Below, piece after piece: positions 25,287 through 35,138 of a stretch of DNA of 64,000 bases. Each line of letters opens with the position of its first letter. The first letter of the stretch is position 1. A model generated the notes under the pieces. The model was not told where the DNA came from, searched no databases, and saw nothing but the letters and a program-made list of their open reading frames with translations. This stretch comes from Torpedo marmorata (Eukaryota). Where the stretch lies: NCBI GenBank assembly GCA_977017645.1, contig OZ360242.1:38688001-38752000 (forward strand). Reading direction: 5' to 3'. A program made the translations under genes and the position numbers.

Positions 25287-26309
25287 TGGATGTAGAACAT
25301 TTTTTGGAATCACCTGAACCTGATACTTTAAAAAAGGCGAAAAAGGAACAGTTAGTGGCTATAGCAACAGAGTTGGGCATTTGCTTCTGTAAAACCATTT
25401 ATGAAAAAGGCAGAGATTGGGAGAAAAAATGTCAAATACTATATAAAAGAAAAAAAATTTGAGGAGAGCTTGTTAGAAGGGTAAACCTTCTGAAAACATA
25501 CAGTTGGAACTAAAGAAATTAAAATTGAAATTGGAACAAAAGAAATTAGACACAGAATTGGAACAAAAGGAATTAGACACGGAATTGTAACTAAAGAGAT
25601 ACGAGAACGATGAGAGAAATAGGAGATATGAGCTGGAAAAGATGAGGTTGGAAAATGAGAGGAGACAAGAAGAGCCCCAAGATCAAATTCGTCATCCTGT
25701 TGAGGGGTTTTTGGCTAGTAGAGAAGTTAGGTTGGTTCCTCCATTTGAGGAGGCAGAAATAGATATGTACTTACAGCATTTTGAGAAGGTGGCTGTGAAA
25801 TTAAAATGGCCACAAGACCAATGGTCTCTTATGTTACAAAGTGTAATGAAAGGAAAAGCTCAGCAAGCTTATTCTACTCTTACCACGGAGCAAGCTGCTG
25901 ATTATGAAATGGTGAAAAAGGCTATACTCCAGGCTTATGTGTTAGTTCCAGAGGCTTATAGACAGAAGTTTAGAAATTTAAAAAGATCAGCAACCCAATC
26001 TTACACAGAGTTTGCCGATGAAAAGGTTGTGTTGTTTTGACCGGTGGTGCACATCTAAGGCGGTAAACAATGATTACAATCAATTGAGAGAATTGATAAT
26101 AATTGAGGAGATAAAAAGGTGTGTTCCTGAGGATATTAAGGCATACTTAGATGAAAAGGAGGTGAAAACTTGGCAAAATTCAGCTAAGTTAGCAGATGAA
26201 TATGCTTTAACCCACAAGCCTAAGTGGACGTCAGGCAGAATTTTCCAAAAGGTCACTGTGGATAATCCCAAGCAAGTGGAAAGTAATTTGGAAGTGGTGT
26301 TAAGGAAAG
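25287..26309 (+). pseudogene. gag: Gypsy gag with a SCAN-like capsid domain (frameshifted; continues at 32357)
   Basis: LVPPFEE..ID.Y..HFEKVA..LKWP, VPEAYRQKFR, FDRWC, LRELIIIEE...P...AYLDE...AKLADEY. The zinc knuckle CHYCRKAGY..ANC lies after the BEL insertion. Confidence 0.88.
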
Positions 26310-26976
26310 TGTAAGAGCCGTAGGCTCATTAACTTACCTTTGCTGCGCCGCTCCGATGCCTCGTCGGGTTGTGGAGCGCTCGCGCTGTCTGTAGGCCGTC
26401 CTCGGCCTGTTCTTTGCTTTGCGCATGCGCTGGAGTGCCGACGGGCGCATGCACAGTCTGGAGTGACGTCATTGTGCGCGGTGTATAGTGGGAGATGCAG
26501 TGTGCGCGGTGGAGCGTGCGCAGGGGTATAGGAGCGATGGAGCATGCAAGAATGGCAGAGAATAGGAAAAAGAATAAGATGTAGGAGGGTGAGTGAGATC
26601 TCCATATCTTTATTGACTGTTTTATAACTTTTTATATCGTTTCATCGAGCGTTTCAGACATCGTTTAATACAGCGTTTTACAGATAGTTTCTAAACGTCT
26701 TAAACATCATTTCATTGAACATTGAACTGATTACTTTGTGGTTTGGAATTGTTTGAGCAACTAAGTACAGTTTAAGGAATCATTTAAAAGAAACTCATCA
26801 TACATCGTTTTCAAGAACTGTTTATATTAAAGTCATTGAAGATTACTGCAAGTCACGAGTGTAAATAAAGTTTTTGAACATATTGGACTTTGTTGGTAAA
26901 TTAATTAAAACGCGTCAAAGACAAGTATCTCACTTAGCCTCCAGGTGACTATTGTTGGATCGAAGTCACCATAATA
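26310..26976 (+). repeat. BEL 5' LTR
   Basis: Direct repeat of 31685-32351. CpG-rich first half, AATAAA at about 26864. Confidence 0.95.
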
Positions 26977-27427
26977 TAGTCAATAAAGCGGCTGTTTGGA
27001 ACAGAAAATTGAAGGAAAAAGATAGAATAATCTCTCTGTGCTTTGGACTGATATTTAAAATAAAATGGTGGCCATCTTGGAGATGCCTCGAGTTGGTGGC
27101 AGTTTGTAATCCACATCCATCTGCCATGAATAACAGCCAGAGAGGGATTTAAAGCTTCAAATCTTATAGTAAAGTGTCCTATAAATACGTTGGAGAAACC
27201 ATTTTTGGAAAATCAGTGATATTAGTGACGGATGTTGTGGTTGAAACTCGTTTGTGGATTGCAGCACATTACAGTCATTTGAAGTGGTTGGCATAAGTCT
27301 GTGGACTCCTTCTGTGTATCTTTAGCAAGTAAGAACACAGATTGGAATTGCTGCCGCTGGTCCATTGGGGACTGTTGTTTGGCTAGTGTTGTGTATGCTT
27401 GAAGGACAGAGGAACAAGACGAGTAAA

Positions 27428-30190
27428 ATGGCCGCAGCAGCCACTGATACAGCAGCTACTGATGTATCAGCAGCTGACGCAGCAACCGCTGATGTTGCTG
27501 TTGAGGACCAACGTATTGAAGACATGAAGGTTGCGGATATTAAAGAAGAATTGAAGCGACTGAAAAAGGACATAAGTGGAAATAAAAAGGTTCTTATCAA
27601 AAGATTGAAGCTGGCAAAGGATGAAGAGGCAGCTTCATTAGATCAACAAGAGGATAACTTAGAAATGGCTGAAATTGTGTCACCAAATGATGAAGAAATT
27701 GAAGAGGTTGAAAATGCAAAGGATATACAATTCGAATTGGATAAAGAGGTAAGTATGAAGACAACATATGAACTGCAGGACGAAATACAAGCAAGTGACA
27801 GTGTCTCAAATGCTGAAAGCAGGAGAAGCAAAAGAAGTTCTGGTTCGAGCTCCAGAGTTTCTCGTACTTCAAGTTCTGCATCGTCACGTACAAAGATTGA
27901 TGTTAAATTGGCCGCTCTTCTTGCACAACAAAAAATGCTTTAGGATAAATATATTTTAGAACAAGAGGAGGAGCAGCTAAGACAAAAGGAGGAGCAGCTA
28001 AAGGAGCAGCTAAGACAAAAGGAGGAGCAGCTAAGACAAGAGGAGGAGCAGCTAAGACAAAATGAGAAGCAGCTAATGGAGCAGCTAAGACAAGAGAAGG
28101 AGCAACTAAGGCAGAGAAAAGAACAGCAGGAGCTAGAAGCAAACATTGCTATTGCCAAGGCAGAAAAGAAAGCAATAAAAGGCTCAATGGTAACTGGTGC
28201 TGGACTTAAATTATTTAAATTGTCTGATAATAAAAGGTCATAATTTAAAAAAGGAGTCACAGGAAAAGAAACCAACCAAAAGGATAGATATTTTAGAACC
28301 AAGGAATACAAAACTTGCATATACGAGGACAAACCTTTCAAGAGCATATTGGTATCGAGTCACATGTACCAATGGTAACATCTGAAAACAAAGCTGCGGC
28401 TTGGGTTCGGTCGAACGAAGCAGCTTCTTTGTTATTTGAGTCAAGCATCAGAAATATGGAAGAAACTACACCAGTGAGGTTTCCAGATACATTGCATGCA
28501 ACAAGAGACGGTGAACAGAGCAATGTATTGTCATCCAAGGAAAGACAAAATGAAATTGCTGCATCATTGTTTCAGTTACAGTCTCTCTCTTCTTTACCCA
28601 AGAAATAAATACAACTTTTTGATGGTGATCCACTTCAATATCAATCATTTATGAGATCTTTCAAACACAATATTGAAGATAAATGCCAAGATCGTGATGA
28701 ATGTCTTTATTATTTGGAATTGTTCACAAAGGGACATCCAAAAGAACTGGTAAAGAGTTGTAAACAAATGTCTTCAAAAAGAGGATTAGACAAAGCTAAG
28801 GATTTATTGGAACAATATTTTGGCAACAAGCATCGAATTGCTTTAGCTTATATGGATAAAGCTCTTAAATGGACATCAATAAAACAAAATGATGTAAAGG
28901 CTCTGCAAGAATATACTCTGTTTTTAAGAGGATGTTGTAATGCTATGGAAGAAATCGATAATATTCGTGAGCTTGAAGTTCATAGTAATATGCGAATTAT
29001 CTTAGAAAAATTACCTTACAAGTTATGGGATAGATGGAGAAATTTGGCTTGTGATTTACAAGTAAATTACGGTCGAAAAATTACCTTAAAGGATTTGGTA
29101 AATTTTCTTGAACGACAGGTGTACGTTGAAACGGATCCACTATATGGAAATACCAGAGATAATTCAATGGGCAAAGATGTAAGGAAGTATAACACACAGT
29201 CTAGTCCGAAATTGAAAAGGAGTACTTTTGCTACTAATGTGCAAGTTATAAGTAAAGAAAAGGACAAAGTAAATAAGGAAAAGGAAAGTTTGCCTGATGA
29301 AAAGAGTTGTTTGTTCTGTAAAGGTGGACATGCTTTGTAAATGTGTTTACGATTGGAAAAGAAGGAACATAAGGAAAAGATCGCTTTCTTAAAGGAAAAT
29401 GGAATATGTTTTAGCTGTCTGTGCAAAGGGCACATCAATAAAAACTGCGAGAAGCGAATTAATTGTAACATATGCAATTTGAAACATCCTAGAATTTTGC
29501 ATATCCATAACAGAAACAAGGAATTGGAAAGGGAGCAAACAGAAACAAAGGAAACAACAGAAAATAATGTTATAACCTCGGTTCAGACAAGTGGTCTTAC
29601 CGGGGCCGGTGTGAATAACTGCAAACTTTCGATAGTGCCTGTACAAGTCAAGACCAAGAAATGGGATGGAATAGTAAAAACATATGCATTTCTTGACCCA
29701 GGCAGCACTGCATCTTTTTGCACGGAAGGACTAATGAATAAACTTAATATTCAAGGAAGAAAATCAAGAATTATGTTAAAAACCATGGGACAAGAAAAGG
29801 TTGTTGAAACTAACATTGTTTCAGGCTTAGAGGTTGCTGGATTGGATGACAAAAAATTTTGTGATCTTCCAAGTTTATATACTCAGAAGACTATGCCGGT
29901 GAATGAAGGAAATATTCCTCATCAAAAGGATATCCATCATTTAGCTTATCTGTGGAAGGTTTATTTACCTGAAATTAATTCTGAGATAGAAATGCTGATT
30001 GGTTCAGATGTGCCAAAGGTTTTGGAACCAAAAGAAGTAATACAGAGTAAAAGGAATGGACCTTACGCTATTAGAACCAAGTTTGGTTGGACAATAAATG
30101 GACCACTGGAAAGAAATAATGATATTGGTCAGGAACAGTTAGCAATAAATATTAATAGAATTTCGGTTGTGAAAGTTGAAGAGTTAAGCG
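27428..30190 (+). pseudogene. gag: BEL gag-protease (N-terminal SAP domain, coiled coil, capsid region, three zinc knuckles, aspartic protease)
   Basis: ORF pieces 27365-27943, 28315-28608, 28651-29340 and 29341 onward, separated by single stops and one frameshift. Motifs CLFCKGGH, CFSCLCKGH, CNICNLKHPRILH, YAFLDPGSTASF and GPYAIRTKFGWTINGP. Confidence 0.88.
27961..28135 (+). repeat. In-frame 21-bp tandem repeat encoding (EEQLRQ[K/E])n
   Basis: Tandem GAGGAGCAGCTAAGACAA(A/G)AG units, one coiled-coil heptad each. Confidence 0.9.
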
Positions 30191-30615
30191 AAGAGCAAAA
30201 AACTGTGAATAAGAAAATCACTTTTGAAGAAAAGAAAACAGACCAATGTGAAAATAAATCAATGGTATTTAAAACAACATTGAAGGAATTAATTTCGTCA
30301 GAAATGGATGAAAGTGAAGTATTAGAAGATGTTGCAAATAATACTATTGATTGTTCATGTGTAATTGAATCAGATACAGGAATAAAACAAGTGACTGAAA
30401 ACAAATCTGATTGTAGATTTTGTAGTTCAGAGATTACAACAGACAAAGCTAATGAAGAAAGATTGCAATGTGATGTAAAACTGGAGAACACAGAAAATTG
30501 TGCTGATGGAATAAAGAATAATGTGAATGATAATTTAATGCAATTGAATTCAGAGAACAAAATGTTGAAAGGGGAATTGGAAATATTAGATAATCAAGAA
30601 AACAGTAAACAGAAA

Positions 30616-30915
30616 GATTTAATTGTAAGTAAAACTCGCAAAGTCAGAAAGCGGAAGAAAAGAATAACTGCTGAAGAAATGAATACAGTTATTGAGGAAA
30701 GAGATTCAGCATTATCAAAATGTAAAAGGTTGGAGGAAGAGATTAATGTTTTGAAAGAGAACAAGTTATTGGTTAATAACACAAAACAGTTGACTTTAAA
30801 AACCAATCAAGAATGTAAATTGAATGTTCAACAATTAACAATGCAGAAAGAATGTGATATTTCATTGCAGAAATGTAACAAGCAAGATGAAGAAATTAAA
30901 AAATTTCAAGTTTGC
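30616..30915 (+). other. MIPOL1: MIPOL1-like coiled-coil segment captured in frame in the BEL ORF
   Basis: RITAEEMNTVIEERDSALSKCKRLEEE (from 30661) compared with human MIPOL1 RITAEEMSALIEERDAALSKCKRLEQE, recalled from memory and not searched. Similarity continues through NN..QLT...NQE..L and EEI....V. Confidence 0.8.
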
Positions 30916-31284
30916 CGCAACAGGATTGACAATAGAAATATCAATGTATCACATGATATTTTGACTTCAGATCAAATTATTAATTTCTCAGAAAGAACTG
31001 AGACTGAATTGAAAGTTACAAAATTGGATTTGGAATTGCAGGAAAGAGCAATAGTGTGGTTAAACAGACCTGTTTAAAATCGAAAGGATCAAATAAATAT
31101 TCAAATTCTAGTTCTAAGAGTTTAAATTCTTCACATGAGAAGTGGAATAATGAAGAAAGGAATAAAGTGAAACGACATGCTGAAGAAGTGCCTTGTGTTA
31201 AATTCAAAAGAAAAACTGTATCTATTTTGTCTGAGGAAGATTTGAGGTTTACTGGTTGACGTTTTAAGTCAGATTATGGAGATA

Positions 31285-31684: not shown

Positions 31685-32351
31685 TGTAAGAGCCGTAGGC
31701 TCATTAACTTACCTTTGCTGCGGCGCTCCGATGCCTCGTCGGGTTGTGGAGCGCTCGCGCTGTCTGTAGGCCGTCTTCGGCCTGTTCTGTGCTTTGCGCA
31801 TGTGCTGGAGTGCCGACGGGCGCATGCGCAGTCTGGAGTGACGTCATTGTGCGCGGTGTATAGTGGGAGATGTAGTGTGCGCGGTGGAGCGTGCGCAGCG
31901 GTATAGGAGCGACGGAGCATGCGAGAACGGCAGAGAATAGGCAAAAGAATAAGATGTAGGAGGGTGAGTGAGATCTCCATATCTTTATTGACCATTTTAT
32001 AACGTTTTATATCGTTTCATCGAGCGTTTCAGACATCGTTAAATACAGCGTTTTACAGATAGTTTCTAAATGTCTTATACATCATTTCATTGAACATTGA
32101 ACTGATTACTTTGTGGTTTGGAATTGTTTGAACAACTAAGTACAGTTTAAGGAATCATTTAAAAGAAACTCATCATACATCGTTTTCAAGAACTGTTTAT
32201 ATTAAAGTCATTGAAGATTACTGCAAGTCACGTGTGTAAATAAAGTTTTTGAACATATTGGACTTTGTTGGTAAATTAATTAAAACGCGTCAAAGACAAG
32301 TATCTCACTTAGCCTCCAGATGACTATTGTTGGATCGAAGTCACCATAATA
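31685..32351 (+). repeat. BEL 3' LTR
   Basis: Direct repeat of 26310-26976, about 20 substitutions by eye. Confidence 0.95.
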
Positions 32352-32356
32352 GAAAG

Positions 32357-35138
32357 GGATGAAGGAAAGTGGAAAAGGGAAAACACTTCAGGTCCCATTT
32401 GCCACTACTGTAGGAAGGCTGGTTATATGCTAGCAAATTGTCCAGTGTTGAAAAAGAAGAGAGAAAAGGATGCAACACCTAATGCTTGTATTCAGAGTGA
32501 GAAGAGGCATAACACCCAGGAAGGAGGTAAATTTACTGACAAAGTTAGAGATGTATTTAAACCTTGTGTGACTGATGGTTTTGTTTCAGTTAAGGCAGGA
32601 TCAAAACAAGTTCCAGTGAAAATCTTGCGAGATACTGGAGCTGCTCAGTCACTTGTGTTAGATAGTGTCTTGGAATTTTGTGAAGCTACTGACACCGGTA
32701 ACATAAATTTAATTAAAGGAATTGGGGGTGATGTTGAGTCCATTCCTTTGCACAAAATAGTATTGGACTCAGACTTGGTGGAAGGATCTGTTATGATAGG
32801 AGTGAGATCAGAGTTGCCAGTAGAAGGAGTCTCACTGTTGCTAGGCAATGACTTGGCTGAGGGTAAAGTCGTTCCTGCAGTGCGAATGACCACTAAGCCT
32901 GTCATTGATAAGTCAGAGAAAGACTCTGATATTTATCCGGCATGTGCCATAACCAGGGCCATGTCTAAGAAAAATGTCACTGTAGAGAAGGCAGTGGAAA
33001 ATAACTTGGTGAAAGAAAAAGTCAGTGATAATCAAGAACACCTGGAAAAGGCTTAGCAATTTCCTATGTTACACCCATCCACTGATAAGACACCTAAAGG
33101 CACAGATTTGTCACTATCCCGACAGGAGCTAATAGCAAGGCAAAAGGACGATCCTGATCTTGCTGAGGTGAGGGATAAGGTTCTCTCTGAAGAGGAGATT
33201 AAAAAGGTGCCAGTGGGTTATTATGAAAAAGATGGGGTGTTGATGAGAAAGTGGAGACCATGTGATGTTCCTGCCAATGAAGAATGGGCAGTAGTGCAGC
33301 AGGTTGTGATCCCTAAAGTATATAGGGATGGAATAATAACTTTGGCTCATAGTACACCCTTAGGTGGTCACCTTAAGGTGTAGAAAACTATAAGGAAGAT
33401 AATGAAACAATTTTATTGGCCCAGTTTGATAAGGGAGGTTGTAAGCTTTTGCCGGGCCTGTCACACTTGTCAGGTGGTGGGTAAACCTAATCAGGGTCCC
33501 CCGGTGGCACCCTTGCAACCTATCCCTGCTTTCAAGTGAGCCTTTCTTGAGAGTAATTGTGGACTGTGTTGGCCAATTGCCCAAAACCAAAGCGGGGAAT
33601 GAGTATTTGTTAACAATTATGTGTGCAGCCACCAGATTTCCAGAGGCCATTCCTCTGAGAAACATTAAAGCAAAAGCAATTGTAAAGGCTATGGTAAAAT
33701 TTTTCACTTTGGTAGGTTTGCCAAGGGAAATTCAATCAGATCAGTGCAGTAATTTCATGTCAGGCGTTTTCCAACAAGTGGTTGATGGACTGGGAGATAA
33801 ACAGATTGTATCCTCTGCGTACCATCCAGAAAGTCAAGGGGCCTTGGAGAGGTTCCATTCGACTTTGAAAAACATGATTAGAACCTATTGTTGTGAGAAG
33901 GAAAAAGATTGGGATGAGGGGGTTCATTTGTTGTTATTTGCAGCGAGGGAGTCTGTCCAAGAATCACTTGGTTTTAGTCCATTCGAGTTAGTTATCAGAC
34001 ATGAGGTGAGAGGTCCTTTAAGATTATTAAAAGAACAGTGGATTAATAGTGATGTGCATTTAAATCTGTTAGATTGTGTTTCAAAATTTAAGGATCGGTT
34101 GCCTCGGGCTTGTGAGATGGCAAAGGAGAATTTAAAGGCCACTCAACAGAGAATGAAGGTTTGGTATGATCGAAAGGCTAAGATGAGATCTTTTAAACCT
34201 GGTGAGAACGTATTAGTTCTGTTTCCCATCCATTCAAATCCTCTTAGGGCGAGATTTTCAGGACCCTATAGAGTTAAGTCAAAAATTAATGATGTTACCT
34301 ATGTCATAGAAACACCTAATCGCAGACGAGACACACAGATCTGTCATGTGAATATGATTAAGCCATATTTTGAACAGGTGCCGCACAAAGAGACTGAACA
34401 TTTACCAGAGGTGCTGGTTATTGACAGGGGTAAGGAGGAGACAGATAAAATCAGTTTCAGAGAGGGTCATGGGACTGTTAATTCTCTGGGTTATGTAGTA
34501 GGACAGGGGAAGTTGGCGCCAGTAGAGGCAAAGGTTGTGACTATTTCCGAGTTCCCTGTTCCAACTGGTAAGAAAACTCTGAGGAGGTTCCTGGGAATGA
34601 TTGGCTACTACCACAAGTTCTGTAAAAACTTTGCTGATCTTGCGCTCCCTCTCACAAATTTTCTTAGAAAGAGAGAAAAATTTGTATGGTTGACAGGTTG
34701 TCAGGAAGCATTTGTCAAATTGAAAGCCATGTTATGCCACCAACCCGTGCTTAAGTCACCTAATTTAGAACAGCCGTTTTCTTTAGCCGTGGATGCCAGT
34801 GATGAAGCTGTGGGCACGGTGCTGTTACGAAGAAGAACGAAGAGGACATTGACCATCCGGTTTCCTACTTCTCGAAGAAGTTCAATGATCATCAAAGGAA
34901 TTATTCAACCATAGAAAAAGAGTTGTTGGCTCTACAACACTTTGATTTTTATATCTGTACAGCTCAAAAAACACTCATAGTGTATACTGACCATAATCCA
35001 TTGGTTTTTCTTTATAAAATGAAAAATAAGAATCGACGGTTTTTGAATTGGAGTCTAATTTTGCAAGAATATGATTTGGTAATAACACATATAATAGGGA
35101 AAGATAATGCAATTGCTGATTGTCTTTCTAGATGTTAA
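32357..35138 (+). pseudogene. pol: Provirus 2: end of gag, protease, integrase, RT thumb and RNase H (RT core deleted)
   Basis: ILRDTGAAQSL (protease); AHSTPLGGHL and CHTC; IVDCVG...SDQ...ESQGALERFH; then a direct jump to LGYVVGQG...LAVDASD...YTDHNPL...NAIADCLSR. Confidence 0.92.

Follow-up and report, generated by a model that had tools for sequence, protein, structure and literature searches.

A BEL/Pao long terminal repeat (LTR) element in the genome of Torpedo marmorata begins its Gag with the 5' end of a spliced host mRNA, that of the SLTM gene. The element, 6,042 nt long, was found in a 64,000-nt stretch of genomic DNA (hereafter the window), where its Gag open reading frame is headed by the stretch 27428–27772. 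The original prediction described this N-terminus as SLTM/SAFB-like with a SAP domain, and the translation is exactly as given there. It further proposed that the element had captured a SAFB-family mRNA at its 5' coding end, which is now seen directly in the match to the host SLTM locus (L086) through the UTR and the exon 1/2 junction. The host capture is real and well traced. The parts of the window element are as follows.

26305–26309, + strand: left target-site duplication GAAAG, from the sequence; the identical 5-mer lies at 32352–32356
26310–26976, + strand: 5' LTR, 667 nt; 20 mismatches in 667 columns (97.0% identity) against the 3' LTR
27390–27427, + strand: decayed remnant of the host SLTM 5'UTR, 38 nt, from the UTR-only match
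27428–27514, + strand: SLTM-derived start codon and Ala-rich leader, the latter extended by a 15-nt tandem duplication
27515–27613, + strand: SAP domain out of SLTM exon 1, from the Pfam match (E = 8.8e-9) and identity to the host exon
27614–27629, + strand: ~16 nt from the beginning of SLTM exon 2, following exon 1 with no intron between; the capture ends here on its 3' side
27630–27943, + strand: acidic linker, then the BEL Gag DSVSN/Ser-rich motif; stop codon at 27941–27943
28609–29340, + strand: BEL Gag core, DUF1759 (Pfam, E = 5.1e-7)
29341–31077, + strand: Cys-His knuckles and aspartic protease, followed by a MIPOL1-like coiled coil at the position of the missing RT, RNase H and integrase core
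31685–32351, + strand: 3' LTR, from the sequence and the comparison with the 5' LTR

In the open reading frame from 27428, the Pfam SAP profile (PF02037) matched residues 30–61 with an E-value of 8.8e-9 and 35.2 bits against a curated cut-off of 23.9 (35.2–36.5 bits across profile runs). Thus the proposed SAP consensus in the middle part of 27428–27770 was recovered by the profile search. The domain is fused in frame with a BEL/Pao Gag, whose motif EIQASDSVSN follows only after the SAP region, as had been noticed, with DUF1759 from 28609 onward. The LTRs lie within the 0.2–1.2 kb that flank gag and pol in Belpaoviridae and are bordered by a 5-nt target-site duplication. The Gag has the capsid and nucleocapsid parts of that family, represented by DUF1759 and Cys-His knuckles, and groups with fish BEL proteins. 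Of the Pol region, the window copy has the protease part only, without RT, RNase H or the integrase core; it is therefore a non-autonomous derivative. It is also broken, with its first stop at 27941–27943 and further stops and a frame change downstream. Only a short AGGGG run was seen ahead of the 3' LTR. Four sequencing runs over the stretch, with 18, 1, 895 and 250 records and only one of them guessed to be RNA, were uninformative on expression.

The host SLTM gene as donor

A search of the genome with dingo SLTM (P0013) returned element copies, and the 15 fetched belong to subfamily A; in 14 of them a near-SLTM N-terminus runs into BEL Gag. An exon-2 pattern was matched only once in the genome, at the host SLTM gene, where the ATG lies at position 167 of the locus, exon 1 ends at 316 before GT, and exon 2 starts at 1501 after AG. 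The RRM exons of the gene are found ~26 kb downstream of exons 1 and 2. All 15 A copies share 84%–90% DNA identity with host SLTM and are the least diverged copies of the element. Their match to the locus begins at position 129 in 13 copies (at 119 and 137 in the remaining two) and ends at exon-2 nucleotide 15–19 in every one. The captured segment comprises 38 nt of 5'UTR, the whole of exon 1 and ~16 nt of exon 2, ~204 nt in total, and the 1,184-nt GT-AG intron 1 is missing from the element copies. Moreover, the spliced host sequence outscored the unspliced one in all 64 copies compared (A 15, B 12, C 17 and D 20, subfamily D being the window type). Since the match extends over the UTR, exon 1 and the start of exon 2 without the intron, the captured material is spliced SLTM mRNA. 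As in a transduced host mRNA, the donor gene is present, and the match includes UTR and runs across a splice junction.

The non-coding part of the capture could be followed separately. Restricted to the UTR, the match of the window copy to SLTM gave p = 0.027, and its best-kept bases, 27417–27427, provide an AAAATGG start context. The same comparison reached p < 0.01 in 13/13 A and 9/10 B copies, and p < 0.05 in 17/18 D and 3/14 C copies. In the line-up with SLTM/SAFB that had been put forward, the Ala-rich leader and the SAP domain were borne out by SLTM exon 1, whereas the DN.E motif (EDNLEM) is coincidental. The capture ends at exon-2 nucleotide 15–19, ahead of GGDPDNI, and EDNLEM was rejected as captured sequence, its counterpart in A copies being KVSNLEM of the element's own linker.

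The A-type N-terminus found its best matches in batoid SLTM proteins (88%–90%), and the SAP with SLTM-type sequence was present in all 120 listed of the 405 matches. The captured piece has an RC dipeptide that is common to the batoid SLTMs compared and absent from the shark ones, and a long Ala leader that it shares with Narcine. These two features point to a capture within the batoid, probably the electric-ray, lineage. The dS is 0.155 between host SLTM and A copies and 0.093 within A. A phmmer search of 1.84 billion representatives yielded 17 matches; among the nine inspected, seven have SLTM-type N-termini (two are named SLTM), and the other two, which are unrelated, contain SAP-like units in repeated form. 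Being diverged, the D sequence makes a poor query, and the 171-aa open reading frame of the window found nothing among longer proteins. In the Atlas, the chimeric N-terminus retrieved weak leads only, the top one (0.78) being an arthropod SAP cluster.

Two SAFB paralogues were located via their RRM exons (L117 and L128); both are on one contig, ~1 Mb from each other, and point the same way. The SAP of the window is identical to host SLTM exon 1 at 20 of 32 residues, and at the DNA level it shares 66% identity with SLTM against 47% and 60% with the two SAFB paralogues. Aligned to SLTM exon 1, the window DNA scored 76 (maximum of 300 shuffles, 36), compared with 27 (shuffle maximum 36) and 46 (shuffle maximum 43) for the paralogues. 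Over 33 codons, the synonymous differences to SLTM, SAFB-a and SAFB-b are 0.15, 0.88 and 0.72 for A; 0.48, 1.08 and 0.85 for B; 0.55, 1.02 and 0.76 for C; and 0.66, 1.04 and 0.87 for D. The synonymous sites favour SLTM over both paralogues in all four subfamilies, and together with the window alignment scores they led us to reject SAFB as the main donor. Two further genome matches to a mammalian-type SAFB pattern are not SAFB genes and resemble element copies.

Two other accounts of the origin were weighed against the SLTM capture. In B, C and D copies the SAP contains a SAFB-like SGNK, which appears to be a later, derived state; a short SGNKSVL patch might otherwise have come from a SAFB mRNA after the SLTM capture, or the C type might stem from another source, with A re-captured. 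Over the eight codons SGNKSVLI a B copy is indeed four synonymous bases from SAFB-b and six from SLTM, the UTR-only match in C is non-significant, and the SAP-only tree (99 nt), being uninformative on origin, rejects no alternative origin of B, C and D (AU p = 0.12 and 0.48). However, the synonymous sites of the whole block favour SLTM in each subfamily, A is the first branch and its stem is very short, one copy is intermediate in having GVK, and the exon-2 extension is present in all copies; we thus consider such a mixed origin unlikely. The idea that the SAP is an old generic module of BEL Gag, with its SLTM likeness due to convergence, could draw on the presence of SAP in other mobile elements, as described for Zisupton and a Penelope-like family (PMC8557442, accessible text), and on the best match of the window copy among solved structures, the MKL1 SAP (2kvu, E = 3e-4, a sequence match). 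It has next to no chance of being right given the match in the non-coding UTR, the splice junction, the 84%–90% DNA identity to the host gene and the lack of SAP in 93 related proteins (see below), and it is already refuted for subfamilies A and B. The ancestral BEL/Pao element of a batoid-like lineage almost certainly recombined with spliced host SLTM mRNA.

Replacement of the native Gag domain and descent of the subfamilies

Fish BEL/Pao elements (Belpaoviridae; ICTV profile PMC8742986), P0143–P0147 among them, share the Gag DSVSN motif, DUF1759, knuckles and protease with the window element, with 58%–70% identity over the Gag core. They also carry the Peptidase_A17, RT and integrase that are found in pol-bearing SAP relatives and are lacking, as to RT, RNase H and integrase core, in the window copy. 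The two differ at the start, where the fish elements have a 150–230-aa region with a conserved helical domain and without SAP, and the window element has the SAP instead. The annotation of 93/93 related long BEL proteins from other sources, some of them truncated gene models, is devoid of SAP; the widespread presence in BEL Gag that had been named as the observation against a host capture is thus not seen. With a profile of the SLTM SAP, these outside relatives scored at most 6.9 bits (n = 93), whereas the window copy reached 40.7 and an A copy 76.1. The full-length relatives inspected have a conserved helical N-terminal domain ahead of the DSVSN motif. The SAP elements are without most of this domain, a weak remnant of which may persist in the linker; the capture thus replaced the native N-terminal domain of Gag rather than being added to it. 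In the T. marmorata genome, one query with the native domain gave no match among 46 candidates, nor did it reveal a SAP-less parent element; the outgroups were compared as protein only.

Copies in the 6.2-Gb genome were grouped into four subfamilies, of which A is SLTM-like and D is the window type, B and C being the others. When the genome was searched at the DNA level with the SAP region, 1,321 candidates came up, of which the 40 scored are 98%–100% identical. At first look, 29,046 candidates emerged with the Pfam SAP profile, a number of candidates and not of copies, and the SAP-linker-Gag layout was found in 29 of the best 30 SAP loci, the remaining one being a host gene that we take to be hnRNPU-like. 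The Gag-protease tree was built from 30 of 40 copies (10 with <150 aligned residues were left out) together with 12 outgroups selected among the closest of the 93. All copies with a SAP fall into a single clade there (UFBoot 96); A splits off early, star-like and with a short stem, while B+D+C are united (UFBoot 98) and D is nested within B (UFBoot 100). The capture is a single one, in the ancestor of the whole SAP clade and not in the window copy, and the window's subfamily D is a late, diverged offshoot.

RT/RNase H matches were present in 12/18 A loci, with Peptidase_A17, RVT_1 and integrase families matched, and the B and D copies examined alongside have the protease part only. Among ten loci found through RT, eight have a D-type SAP region upstream on the same strand (seven by protein motif and one by DNA alignment), with an LTR and leader similar to those of the window; the last 1 kb before RT lies outside the data of these loci. 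Pol-bearing relatives thus share the exact N-terminus of the window copy, a point that the original prediction had proposed to check in autonomous BEL relatives. These ten loci (L147–L156) were picked up through a C-type RT to which they are 91% identical, and eight of them have a D-type LTR, leader and SAP-Gag in their 5' parts; recombination between subfamilies may have produced them, or pol may simply be well conserved across subfamilies.

With a peptide from the D-type coiled coil as query, 29,417 candidates were obtained; the 150 that were scored are all 100% identical, and 81 of them belong to open frames that span 1,200 aa or more. In a sample of the first 16, which is biased to young copies, 15 have LTR pairs 99.35%–100% identical together with the SAP, and nine have a frame that begins with the SAP and stays unbroken to the end of the coiled coil. 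The sampled D copies are very young. The coiled coil, which is in frame with SAP-Gag in many young copies, occupies the place of pol (30547–30948 in the window), and its top Atlas match is MIPOL1 (0.96, of weak recognition value). The non-autonomous B/D branch has thus probably made another capture from the host.

Fate and putative role of the captured SAP domain

Comparison of the SAP in the window with that of the host gave a pN/pS of 0.39, which was reached by 0%, 1.4% and 4.4% of neutral simulations with rising CpG and AT bias. The window copy keeps 10 of 11 key SAP residues, as do 2%–8% of the neutral simulations (p = 0.02–0.08). Between A and D, pN/pS is 0.34–0.41 for the SAP, 0.39–0.52 for DUF1759 and 0.72–0.95 for the linker (rows for L102 in this four-region comparison were mis-anchored and left out); the SAP is free of indels, and the linker lost 15 of 62 codons. 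The amino-acid identity of the SAP (0.58–0.63) is nevertheless near that of the linker (0.49–0.63), and in A-versus-C pairs the SAP ratio is 0.53–0.88. The low pN/pS of the SAP stems largely from a high pS, as expected with CpG and AT decay of a GC-rich insert, and the A, B and C copies were chosen by SAP or SLTM score, with a bias towards conservation. The data are moderately indicative of purifying selection on the SAP, confounded by composition shift and ascertainment. Against the Pfam SAP profile, donor exon 1 scored 45.3 bits, A 40.7, B 52–54, C 53–58 and the window 36.5, the B and C copies having been chosen for high score; the window SAP has a Lys in place of a conserved Leu.

These results enable us to propose a putative model, which as a whole, from SLTM capture to a SAP kept as a DNA-binding module, we somewhat favour. 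Template switching on a co-packaged mRNA during reverse transcription is the likely route, judged from retroviral biology. The ~204-nt piece, with UTR, start codon, Ala leader, SAP and exon-2 start, replaced in frame most of the native helical N-terminus of Gag. The resulting chimera founded subfamilies A, B, C and D and then spread widely through the genome; window-type D copies are the youngest, many of them non-autonomous, with pol-bearing copies of the same 5' end as likely helpers. The binding of SAP was reported as weak in solution and density-dependent on beads (PMC10403129, accessible text). A single SAP would accordingly bind weakly, and many copies on a Gag polymer could gain avidity. 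The SAP might thereby aid nuclear retention or integration, by holding the particle or the integration complex on AT-rich chromatin of the host or on cDNA of the element itself.

Retention of the SAP as a DNA-binding module is, by a narrow preference, the function we would assign to it. The pN/pS and the key residues kept beyond neutral simulations speak for it, as do the Pfam scores of B and C above that of the donor; on the other side, the Gag frame must remain open regardless, the window SAP falls below the donor with its Lys for Leu, the amino-acid identity is close to that of the linker, and the A-versus-C ratio is high. The same observations could be read as a passenger capture, in which the SLTM UTR, start context and ATG, or the loss of the native N-terminal domain, were useful, and the SAP is tolerated filler that stays in frame only because Gag follows. 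The linker-like identity of the SAP, the best-kept UTR bases adjoining the ATG, and the lowered score of the young D SAP with one hydrophobic residue lost agree with this reading. It is, however, at odds with a SAP free of indels beside a linker that lost 15 codons, with a pN/pS that neutral simulations including CpG and AT bias seldom reach, and with changes shared by B, C and D that go towards the general SAP profile; we regard it as a serious but minority possibility. SAFB-family proteins repress L1 and LTR elements via A-rich RNA binding: SAFB1, SAFB2 and SLTM were reported to bind A-rich L1 RNA, and their depletion to raise LTR/ERV expression in mouse and fly cells (PMC10901741, accessible text). 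SAP-Gag might therefore act in counter-defence by competing with SLTM/SAFB for chromatin or partners, or small RNAs of the element might cross-silence SLTM mRNA, either way loosening the repression of A-rich elements. The coding region of the element is 40% A, and A copies are still 84%–90% identical to SLTM mRNA. The element took the SAP alone, without the RRM or ER-rich region, and its youngest sampled subfamily stands at 66% DNA identity, away from SLTM-specific residues, which makes counter-defence improbable. As the RRM and ER-rich parts of SLTM lie outside the capture, the idea of a decoy is weakened, and a decoy role is less likely than the DNA tether. More tentatively still than the tether itself, one may imagine that the chromatin domain of a transposon-repressor gene was swapped for a Gag N-terminal domain and tuned into a multivalent tether or an antagonist of SAFB/SLTM surveillance, helping the clade to tens of thousands of loci and inflating the 6.2-Gb genome, with a MIPOL1-like mRNA captured later.

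Relation to known systems

In retroviral oncogene transduction, a spliced host mRNA is likewise joined in frame to gag; in the SAP clade, by comparison, the capture is fixed in a lineage with pol-bearing members and amplified in the germ line. Chromatin tethers borne by Gag are present in MLV p12 and foamy-virus Gag, and SAP-like N-termini occur in some arthropod Gypsy proteins. The members of the SAFB/SLTM family combine SAP, RRM and an ER-rich region, and no RRM match was found in the element open reading frames. Compared with SLTM, SAFB1 and SAFB2 as described in the accessible text of PMC10901741, the Ala leader and SAP of the element come from SLTM exon 1, and the remainder of the family architecture is lacking; it is a Gag-fused fragment and not a family member. 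As far as the consulted text of PMC8557442 goes, SAP is an accessory domain in Zisupton DNA transposons and Chlamys Penelope-like elements, as it is here; those are other element classes, with the SAP outside Gag and the host donor unnamed there. The closest parallel is CopiaMBD (de Mendoza et al. 2019, PMC6673714, accessible text), in which a chromatin/DNA-reader domain of the host was likewise acquired a single time by an LTR lineage and then retained, and for which a part in integration-site choice was proposed; the tethering role of the SAP is suggested by analogy with it. The present case differs in concerning BEL/Pao and SAP, in heading Gag and replacing a native domain, and in a donor gene, UTR and splice junction still legible in the DNA. 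Binding has been demonstrated for CopiaMBD and is a prediction for SAP-Gag. No report of SAP in BEL Gag or of SLTM capture was found among the listings and abstract openings of the mostly open-access literature covered, and the BEL/Pao survey PMC3118150 nowhere mentions SAP.

Accessory chromatin domains of retrotransposons are mostly too old for donor tracing. In the present case a single genome holds the donor gene and graded descendants along with the UTR start, the splice junction and the domain that was replaced, which permits the fate of a captured domain to be followed residue by residue. Because the donor family is reported to repress transposons, a counter-defence or tethering hypothesis is testable. 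The capture also shows that BEL Gag can have most of its N-terminal domain replaced. Furthermore, thousands of SAP/SLTM-like matches in this genome are transposon copies that can mislead gene annotation.

Several minor features were observed along the way. The window BEL copy sits within a Gypsy element (25591–26309 and 32352–35138) whose integrase precedes the RT/RNase H part, an order we take to be Gmr1-like. The D-type LTRs apparently end in ATA or similar and not in CA (26974–26976 in the window; L132–L146), the ends being mapped imprecisely, and target duplications in these D-type copies are 4–5 nt. SAP and RT matches of identical score and identical frame length recur on many small contigs (C23, C184, C187, C237, C566, C651, C782 and others), which suggests an element copy within a large tandem or segmental repeat. 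Finally, 21-nt tandem repeats at 27961–28118 of the window encode EEQLRQK-like heptads in Gag, and their number differs among copies.
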